In this document: one piece after another, positions 58,196-58,570 of the stretch
Position numbering within the stretch: the stretch's first letter is position 1
How the letters are laid out: each line of letters starts with the position of its first letter
Assembly: GCA_021772335.1 (NCBI GenBank)
Contig: JAJFMD010000006.1
Span: 152,857 to 216,856 of the forward strand
Source of the DNA: Chlamydiota bacterium
Lineage (GTDB): Bacteria > Chlamydiota > Chlamydiia > Chlamydiales > Rhabdochlamydiaceae
Direction: 5' to 3'
DNA length: 64,000 nt
Translations under genes and position numbers: made by a program
The notes under the pieces: generated by a model
What the model was told of the DNA's origin: nothing
What the model saw: only the letters and a program-made list of their open reading frames with translations
Databases searched by the model: none

Positions 58196-58250
58196 TTAGA
58201 TCGAGAAAAAGGGCTCTGATAGAGAGCCCATTTTGATTAGTCTTCTTGAG
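58196..58250 (-). repeat. duplicated copy of the terminator and last codons of the SH3-protein gene (original at 60913-60968)
   Basis: TTAGATCGAGAAAAAGGGCTCTGATAGAGAGCCCATTTTGATTAGTCTTCTTGAG matches TTAGGTCGAGAAAAAGGGCGCTGATAGAGCGCCCATTTTGATTAGTCTTCTTGAG at 60913. Confidence 0.85.
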
Positions 58251-58570
58251 ATTGAGGATAACTTTGACATATCGACAGAAGCGCGTGCAATAGCGCTTAC
58301 AGCTGTGATGTTTGTTCTTGGATACTTTATGGTGAGTCGCTGGAAGTTTCCCAGCTTAAAGACACTGTACTTTCGGTTGCCATCATTTCAACTTGTCTTC
58401 TTTTGATGCTCTTTGCTCTATGGCATTCTCTACTTCTTTGCGATCATCCTCTTTGCGATCTCTTGGGGCTATGTCGTGCTTGGCTGGATTCTCTCAATCA
58501 TTCGCCTCATCGCCGGCAAAAAATCTAAGACCCTCGCCGACTTCGAACCCGAACCCGAATCCGATGATGA
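58251..58570 (+). pseudogene. duplicated, inactivated 3' portion of pssA (original at 55525-55858)
   Basis: It is near-identical to the pssA 3' third, starting at ATTGAGGA(C/T)AACTTTGACATATCGACAG. It carries a 1-nt and an 11-nt deletion around 58396-58415. These create an in-frame TGA (TTC TTT TGA) where pssA reads TTC TTT TTA GTG. Confidence 0.85.

Follow-up and report, generated by a model that had tools for sequence, protein, structure and literature searches.

The window analysed here is a 64,000-nt stretch of DNA (positions 152,857 to 216,856 of contig C6) from the 1.82-Mb, 9-contig draft genome, 92% complete, of an environmental chlamydia. It contains a small gene array that lies inside a 228-kb contig and not at a contig edge. 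From left to right, the locus reads pssA, P1, a fragment of a fifth paralog, P2, a scar, P3, a second copy of the end of an SH3-protein gene, P4, and the SH3-protein gene itself. The left flank, pssA (54991..55860, plus strand), is intact and encodes a 289-aa CDP-alcohol phosphatidyltransferase, which aligns at full length with the proteins of 30 relatives. Its match to PF01066 (E=3.7e-16) covers residues 16–187, the CDP-alcohol phosphatidyltransferase motif region, and its score against TIGR00473 is 95.7 bits, under the cut-off of 107. The right flank (60954..62201, minus strand) is an intact gene for a 415-aa SH3-domain protein (Pfam SH3_3, E=6e-10) with orthologs in 30 of 31 genomes. The stop codon of this gene is at 60954–60956 and its terminator at 60928–60946, both on the minus strand.

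The four P genes were defined as open reading frames and by alignment, and all are on the minus strand: P1 (286 aa, 55961..56821), P2 (312 aa, 57125..58063), P3 (337 aa, 58660..59673) and P4 (303 aa, 59870..60781). The remnant of a fifth paralog (56912..57162, minus strand) is an internal fragment of approximately codons 77–160, recognized as part of repeat family D3 and by its nucleotide identity to P3, and it extends into the chimeric 3ʹ end of P2. At their 3ʹ ends, the four P paralogs cannot be aligned. Only P3 has a further ~35 residues at the C-terminus, which include a hydrophobic stretch and are encoded by the 190 nt beside the scar (58660–58767).

The P family occurs in this genome only, as the four copies and the fragment in the array plus one relative on contig C8. 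A search of 30 related genomes and 5.8 billion proteins returned only the four genes in the window. A pattern fitting both the intact and the scar copy of pssA had no match when scanned over metagenome and genome contigs, and a search for related loci with pssA as the query returned nothing. For the P proteins, Pfam gave only sub-threshold ankyrin matches, NCBIfam gave none, and an AlphaFold model (pLDDT 70.6) had no fold match in the PDB at E<=0.001. The relative on C8 (~300.0–301.5 kb) is a 493-codon stop-to-stop frame that is 34% identical over the C-terminal ankyrin-like module. It is flanked by a 174-nt local repeat (C8:300250-300423 and 302177-302350, 91%).

What normally occupies this position? 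The 30 related genomes represent other genera of the family and order. In most of them, pssA lies 1.3–7 kb from the SH3 gene as its convergent neighbour; hence, the parents of the scar are the ancestral flanks of the slot. In these relatives (loci L017–L033), rmuC directly follows pssA, and a gene for a 258-aa ferritin-like protein lies next to the SH3 gene. RmuC is present in 25 of 31 genomes and absent from this one, by tblastn as well. Both rmuC and the 258-aa ferritin-like gene are missing from the whole draft (92% complete), the slot being filled by the P array, and a relaxed tblastn search for remnants of either within the array gave only noise. The product of rmuC is a DNA recombination protein that limits recombination. 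That such a gene was lost exactly where a rearranging array is found may or may not be due to chance. Genome G018, from another genus, has its own partial tandem duplication in this slot (locus L018, contig C20, 168–1025, 1022–1357 and 1354–2499), comprising the pssA 3ʹ end and the first rmuC codons. The middle copy there is an intact 111-codon ORF with 81% nucleotide identity, a dS of 0.49 and a dN of 0.17, and its last ~55 nt are almost identical to the parent. In genome G012, a partial copy of the pssA 3ʹ end lies at a contig end (C42:127-294).

The scar is 385 bases long (58190–58574) and fuses the tail of the SH3 gene to the last third of pssA. Whole-genome BLAST matches 58190–58259 to 60908–60974 (E=3e-20, 91%), which covers the 3ʹ end and terminator of the SH3 gene, and 58250–58574 to pssA 55524–55860 on the plus strand, stop codon included (E=4e-151). 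When aligned, the SH3 piece (58190–58251 against 60908–60968) differs from its parent by 3 substitutions and 1 indel in 61 nt. In a global alignment of 336 columns, the pssA copy differs from its parent by 6 substitutions and by gaps in 12 columns. A sequence-only reading of this DNA had proposed both parents, and local alignment and whole-genome BLAST agree with it; alignment also showed that the similarity is not of low complexity. That reading had placed the outer boundaries slightly too far in: the SH3 piece starts at 58190 and not at 58196, and the pssA piece runs to its own stop codon at 58574 and does not end at 58570. In BLAST of the 1.82-Mb genome, the scar pieces matched four places, all within the locus and none outside it. 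No RNA family in Rfam matched the scar.

Both pieces are in direct orientation, and at the joint the distal SH3 end, from 60.9 kb, precedes the proximal pssA piece, from 55.5 kb, on the same strand. The head-to-tail geometry proposed earlier is therefore real. The SH3 match extends through 58251 and the pssA match begins at 58250. The overlap common to the two parents is GA (58250..58251), 2 nt, as read from the sequence, and not the GAG microhomology that had been suggested; the 5-nt motif GAGGA is found near the join in both parents, but out of register. We attach no weight to the overlap, since at least 2 nt are expected in ~16% of random joins.

Judged from its sequence, the scar is a genuine head-to-tail joint left by a duplication, at which the end of the SH3 gene meets the last third of pssA. 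The copies come from the same locus in direct orientation, they stand in distal-then-proximal order, and there is little homology at the join, all of which are features of a duplication joint. A further such feature, flanking units that are colinear and similarly diverged throughout, was not found. The units on either side of the joint have P-family genes and a 126-nt terminator spacing in common, but differ in gene numbers and fragments. We found no homology between the supposed units past the pssA stop codon, where it stops exactly. The flanking segments 58575–58700 and 55861–55990, and the sequence to the right of the second joint described below, have no homolog anywhere in the genome. The edges are sharp: identity falls from ~98% to nothing at the pssA stop codon and from ~95% to ~50% at 58190. 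We consequently regard the scar as a duplication joint whose later history was complicated and which does not serve as a clean clock.

The pssA copy (58250..58574, plus strand; codons 178–289 and the stop codon) starts at codon 178, past the catalytic motif region, and is without a start codon and the catalytic N-terminal half. As proposed earlier, it is dead, with a 1-nt and an 11-nt deletion and an in-frame TGA (58404–58406). The two deletions sum to 12, so that the reading frame is restored after the second. The copy also has H replaced by Y at a conserved site at which the residue is H, D or E in 15 of 15 relatives and Y in none. To judge from these lesions, the piece is a non-functional pseudogene. 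The TGA is the sole block to a 108-codon ORF (58251–58574), which could begin at a TTG (58233) within the copied SH3 tail.

The other part of the scar, SH3ʹA (58190..58251, minus strand), is a copy of the SH3-gene terminator, stop codon and last 4–5 codons, identified by alignment, terminator pattern and fold. Its hairpin (58211–58229, read from 58229 to 58211 on the minus strand, with a U-run on that strand) has a 7-bp stem with 5 GC pairs, followed by TTTTTCTCGA, and a computed fold energy of -14.2 kcal/mol. In the stem, a G-C pair has become T-A, both sides having changed in a compensatory manner. The copied terminator most likely ends the P3 transcript, as the pattern and fold suggest; no other minus-strand terminator pattern was found between the P3 stop codon and 58229–58211.

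A second joint, SH3ʹB (59801..59864, minus strand), carries another copy of the SH3 terminator together with the last 10 codons of the gene; it belongs to repeat family D9 at 86% and was detected by BLAST with E=4e-6. The source of the SH3 copies, containing the terminator, the stop codon and the last 10 codons, is 60908..60983 (minus strand). SH3ʹB abuts the P4 stop codon at a distance of 5 nt, and its hairpin (59809–59827), identified by terminator pattern and fold, probably ends the P4 transcript. The breakpoint within the SH3 gene is at 60968 for the scar and at 60983 for SH3ʹB. These positions differ by 15 nt, which implies at least two independent duplication events. The breakpoints are 22 and 37 nt from the GC-rich terminator hairpin, which suggests a breakpoint hotspot beside it.

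An SH3 terminator, original or copied, lies 126 nt from P2, 127 nt from P3 and 126 nt from P4. This constant spacing is expected if each duplication took the SH3 terminator along. The spacer between the P2 start and the terminator copy (58064..58189, 126 nt) was delimited by coordinates and three-way alignment; among the three spacers, the 70 nt nearest the promoter are conserved, and identity is ~50% in the distal part.

The bodies of the P paralogs, from codon 57 to the end, are far apart, with a dS of 0.93–1.90, a dN of ~0.5 and 50–65% nucleotide identity. In codons 1–56, by contrast, dS is 0.03–0.06 among P1–P3 and 0.22–0.25 against P4. The homogenized segments, comprising promoters and the first 56 codons, are 56634–56909, 57876–58151, 59506–59673 and 60614–60781. 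Near-identity of P1 and P2 spans positions -88 to +188, including 88 nt of 5ʹ flank, whereas that of P1 and P3 is confined to the coding sequence, and the tract ends are abrupt and differ between pairs. Such nested tracts cannot be produced by duplication and deletion, but can be produced by short-patch conversion between copies 1.2–2.9 kb apart. Thus, short-patch gene conversion clearly homogenizes the 5ʹ ends of the P paralogs.

The same bodies bear on the ancestry of the array. The sequence-only reading had P1 and P2 on one side and P3 and P4 on the other descending from one ancestral unit, and this is without phylogenetic support. Parsimony-informative sites for the three possible splits of P1–P4 number 27:28:25, a star-like pattern, and P2 groups weakly with P4 (86/86) in a maximum-likelihood tree that has the C8 paralog as its outgroup, on a very long branch. 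A history with a single ancestral unit is also at odds with the fifth-paralog remnant, which is on the P1/P2 side and is closest to P3 (68% nucleotide identity with P3 coding-sequence nucleotides 228–483, and ~82% over the first 130 nt). We separately considered duplication of a two-gene block, with P1 and P3, and P2 and P4, as near-identical pairs, and rejected it: those pairs are as diverged as the others.

Does the scar date the amplification, as had been claimed? Its divergence from the parents, K, is ~0.02 for the pssA part and ~0.05 for the SH3 part, against a dS of 0.93–1.90 for the paralog bodies. The scar is too little diverged to date the array, because a neutral pseudogene from the same event should match the synonymous divergence of the paralogs. 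It shows how the array grew, not when. The timing and the structure are read from one draft assembly, and the array is known from this genome alone.

We favour, with moderate confidence, the view that the scar is an old tandem-duplication joint, one of at least two, that has been kept young-looking by gene conversion from its parents. Illegitimate recombination at the 2-nt GA would have linked the SH3 gene, at a position 14 nt in from its 3ʹ end, to pssA codon 178, duplicating everything in between, including at least one P-family gene then present. A second event, with its breakpoint 30 nt inside the SH3 gene (59801–59864), would have made the P3/P4 pair. From these joints we infer an array that grew through repeated duplications, each of which would have carried the SH3 terminator along, and later deletions that would have left the fifth-paralog fragment. 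The pssA part of the old joint would have been renewed repeatedly from its constrained parent 2.7 kb away, and the terminator part perhaps as well.

Several observations bear on conversion of the scar itself. Conversion operates in codons 1–56 of the P genes, and the genome has many local tandem duplicates that are 85–93% identical; we count both in favour of this view. Conversion tracts seldom reach the ends of a block, and 2 of the 6 substitutions in the pssA copy are within 10 nt of the block ends (a post hoc observation, p~0.05). On the other hand, the remaining substitutions are distributed evenly and both central deletions persist, as would be expected of a simply young pseudogene. At 61 nt, the SH3 piece offers little length for conversion to be efficient, yet it is only ~5% diverged, and the sharp edges of the blocks could equally be rearrangement breakpoints.

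The latter observations lead to two alternatives in which the scar is as young as it looks, and we regard both as unlikely, to about the same degree. One is a recent tandem duplication of the whole array, from pssA codon 178 to the SH3 end, at a time when the paralogs had already diverged, followed by reciprocal deletions that removed P3–P4 from the left unit and P1–P2 from the right so that only the young joint was left. To produce the left deletion, the new terminator copy could have recombined with an older copy upstream of P2. This would account for the roughly equal youth of the two halves (K of 0.02 and 0.05), the even spread of substitutions, the indels that were not erased, and the sharp edges on both sides; moreover, this genome has many tandem duplicates, and the two pssA copies rank among its most similar dispersed repeats. 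Nonetheless, three events are needed, one of them a deletion ending within 1–2 nt of the pssA stop codon, and the earlier terminator copy that must have been present upstream of P2 has left no independent trace, nor have the deleted copies left any remainder. The second alternative invokes serial template switching, as in FoSTeS/MMBIR and quasipalindrome template switching: a templated insertion would have placed a 385-nt young mosaic into an old array with no large duplication. Synthesis would have passed from an older terminator upstream of P2 to the true SH3 terminator and 14 nt into the SH3 gene, and then, across the GA overlap, to pssA codon 178 and on to the pssA stop codon before returning. 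The small size and sharp bounds of the young block within old sequence are consistent with such a path, as is the preserved 126-nt spacing. Both copied blocks end beside hairpin-forming sequences, with the SH3 breakpoints 22 and 37 nt from one hairpin and the pssA block stopping 2 nt before another, which follows the pssA stop codon. However, three switches in one event are needed, direct evidence for them is lacking, and the second joint (59801–59864) is more simply explained as a plain duplication joint.

Two further alternatives have little to recommend them. A single duplication of a one-gene unit could have made the scar, with P1/P2 and P3/P4 following and without any conversion, so that scar divergence would date the amplification. 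This history agrees with the way the joint is arranged and with the conserved spacing of the terminators, but a neutral fragment cannot be 50-fold less diverged than the synonymous sites of genes that were duplicated later, there is no signal for a (P1,P2)(P3,P4) split, and the fragment on the left side is P3-like; we consider it very improbable. An assembly artefact, either a chimeric contig or two collapsed strain haplotypes, is the least probable explanation of all. Although the assembly is a 9-contig draft and the locus is rich in repeats, a 2-nt overlap is far below any assembler k-mer, so that spanning reads must exist, and the locus is internal to a 228-kb contig. Moreover, each half of the scar has substitutions and indels of its own, and the stem has its compensatory change; these make the scar a separate physical copy and not the product of an assembler re-using reads.

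Could the scar itself have acquired a function? A P3 mRNA reaching SH3ʹA would extend ~450 nt beyond the stop codon, and a 324-nt part of it would show 98% complementarity to the last third of the pssA mRNA. If the scar had been co-opted in this way, the P3 3ʹ UTR would act as a trans-antisense RNA linking expression of a host-interaction gene to phosphatidylserine synthesis, and selection for pairing, acting via gene conversion, would explain the near-identity of the dead fragment. Regulatory use of an antisense P3 3ʹ UTR is possible but unsupported, and we give co-option only a slim chance.

Physical duplication joints are rarely preserved in bacterial genomes. The kind of scar described here is already well known, and the relic is an expected by-product of a well-known process. 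Its value lies in what the two joints show directly: a lineage-specific chlamydial gene family grew in place by repeated illegitimate head-to-tail duplications that reused a breakpoint region beside one terminator hairpin. As it grew, the array displaced rmuC and the ferritin-like gene, which are found in this slot in related genera. The contrast between a young joint and saturated paralog bodies is a caution that scars in gene-converting loci are unusable as clocks. The two 324-nt direct repeats predict a metastable array, since recombination between them would delete P1–P2. In a self-comparison of the whole genome, we found 44 repeat pairs of at least 150 nt and at least 85% identity, almost all of them local or tandem and 85–93% identical. 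Gene families in this genome appear to have grown mainly by tandem duplication.

Roth, Reams and colleagues have reportedly characterized the novel join points that spontaneous tandem duplications create in Salmonella and E. coli. The scar resembles such spontaneous bacterial duplications in that the end of one unit is joined to the start of the next in direct orientation, with little homology (2 nt in this case) and with truncated pieces of genes. As in those duplications, homologous recombination between the long direct repeats can subsequently collapse the unit or amplify it. In contrast to laboratory duplications, which are young and have identical units, the units here are saturated and the joint looks young; in addition, the relic is fixed and its terminator has apparently been re-used. 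Microhomology at the join points of tandem duplications has also been described (PMC11111574).

Birth-and-death tandem arrays of lineage-specific, effector-like families have been reported for environmental chlamydiae of the Parachlamydiaceae (Domman et al. 2014, PMC4209131). The P array is similar in several respects: it is a species-specific tandem array, in an amoeba-associated chlamydial lineage, of proteins of the eukaryote-like-domain type, and copies have been gained and lost with fragments left behind. The likeness in domains is limited: the P family has only a sub-threshold hint of ankyrin, and domains such as F-box or BTB are absent. Domman et al. saw no convincing sign of recombination or gene conversion in the families they studied, whereas the first 56 codons and the promoters are clearly homogenized here. 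Furthermore, physical duplication joints are not described in PMC4209131, and are present in the P array.

In bacteria, concerted evolution can take the form of gene conversion between a working gene and a truncated copy close by (Santoyo and Romero 2005, as cited in PMC4209131). Features reminiscent of concerted evolution at this locus are a dead partial pssA copy that lies 2.7 kb from its parent and is ~98% identical to it, and paralogs with short, abrupt tracts of near-identity. The locus differs from concerted-evolution systems in that conversion of the pssA copy is something we infer, and in that neither a variation system nor a selective benefit is apparent. The closest counterpart in position is the duplication in G018 (L018, 1022–1357). 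Its unit is only ~330 nt long and its copy is an intact 111-codon ORF, whereas the scar copy here is dead; it is an independent duplication in which the unit likewise starts in the last third of pssA.
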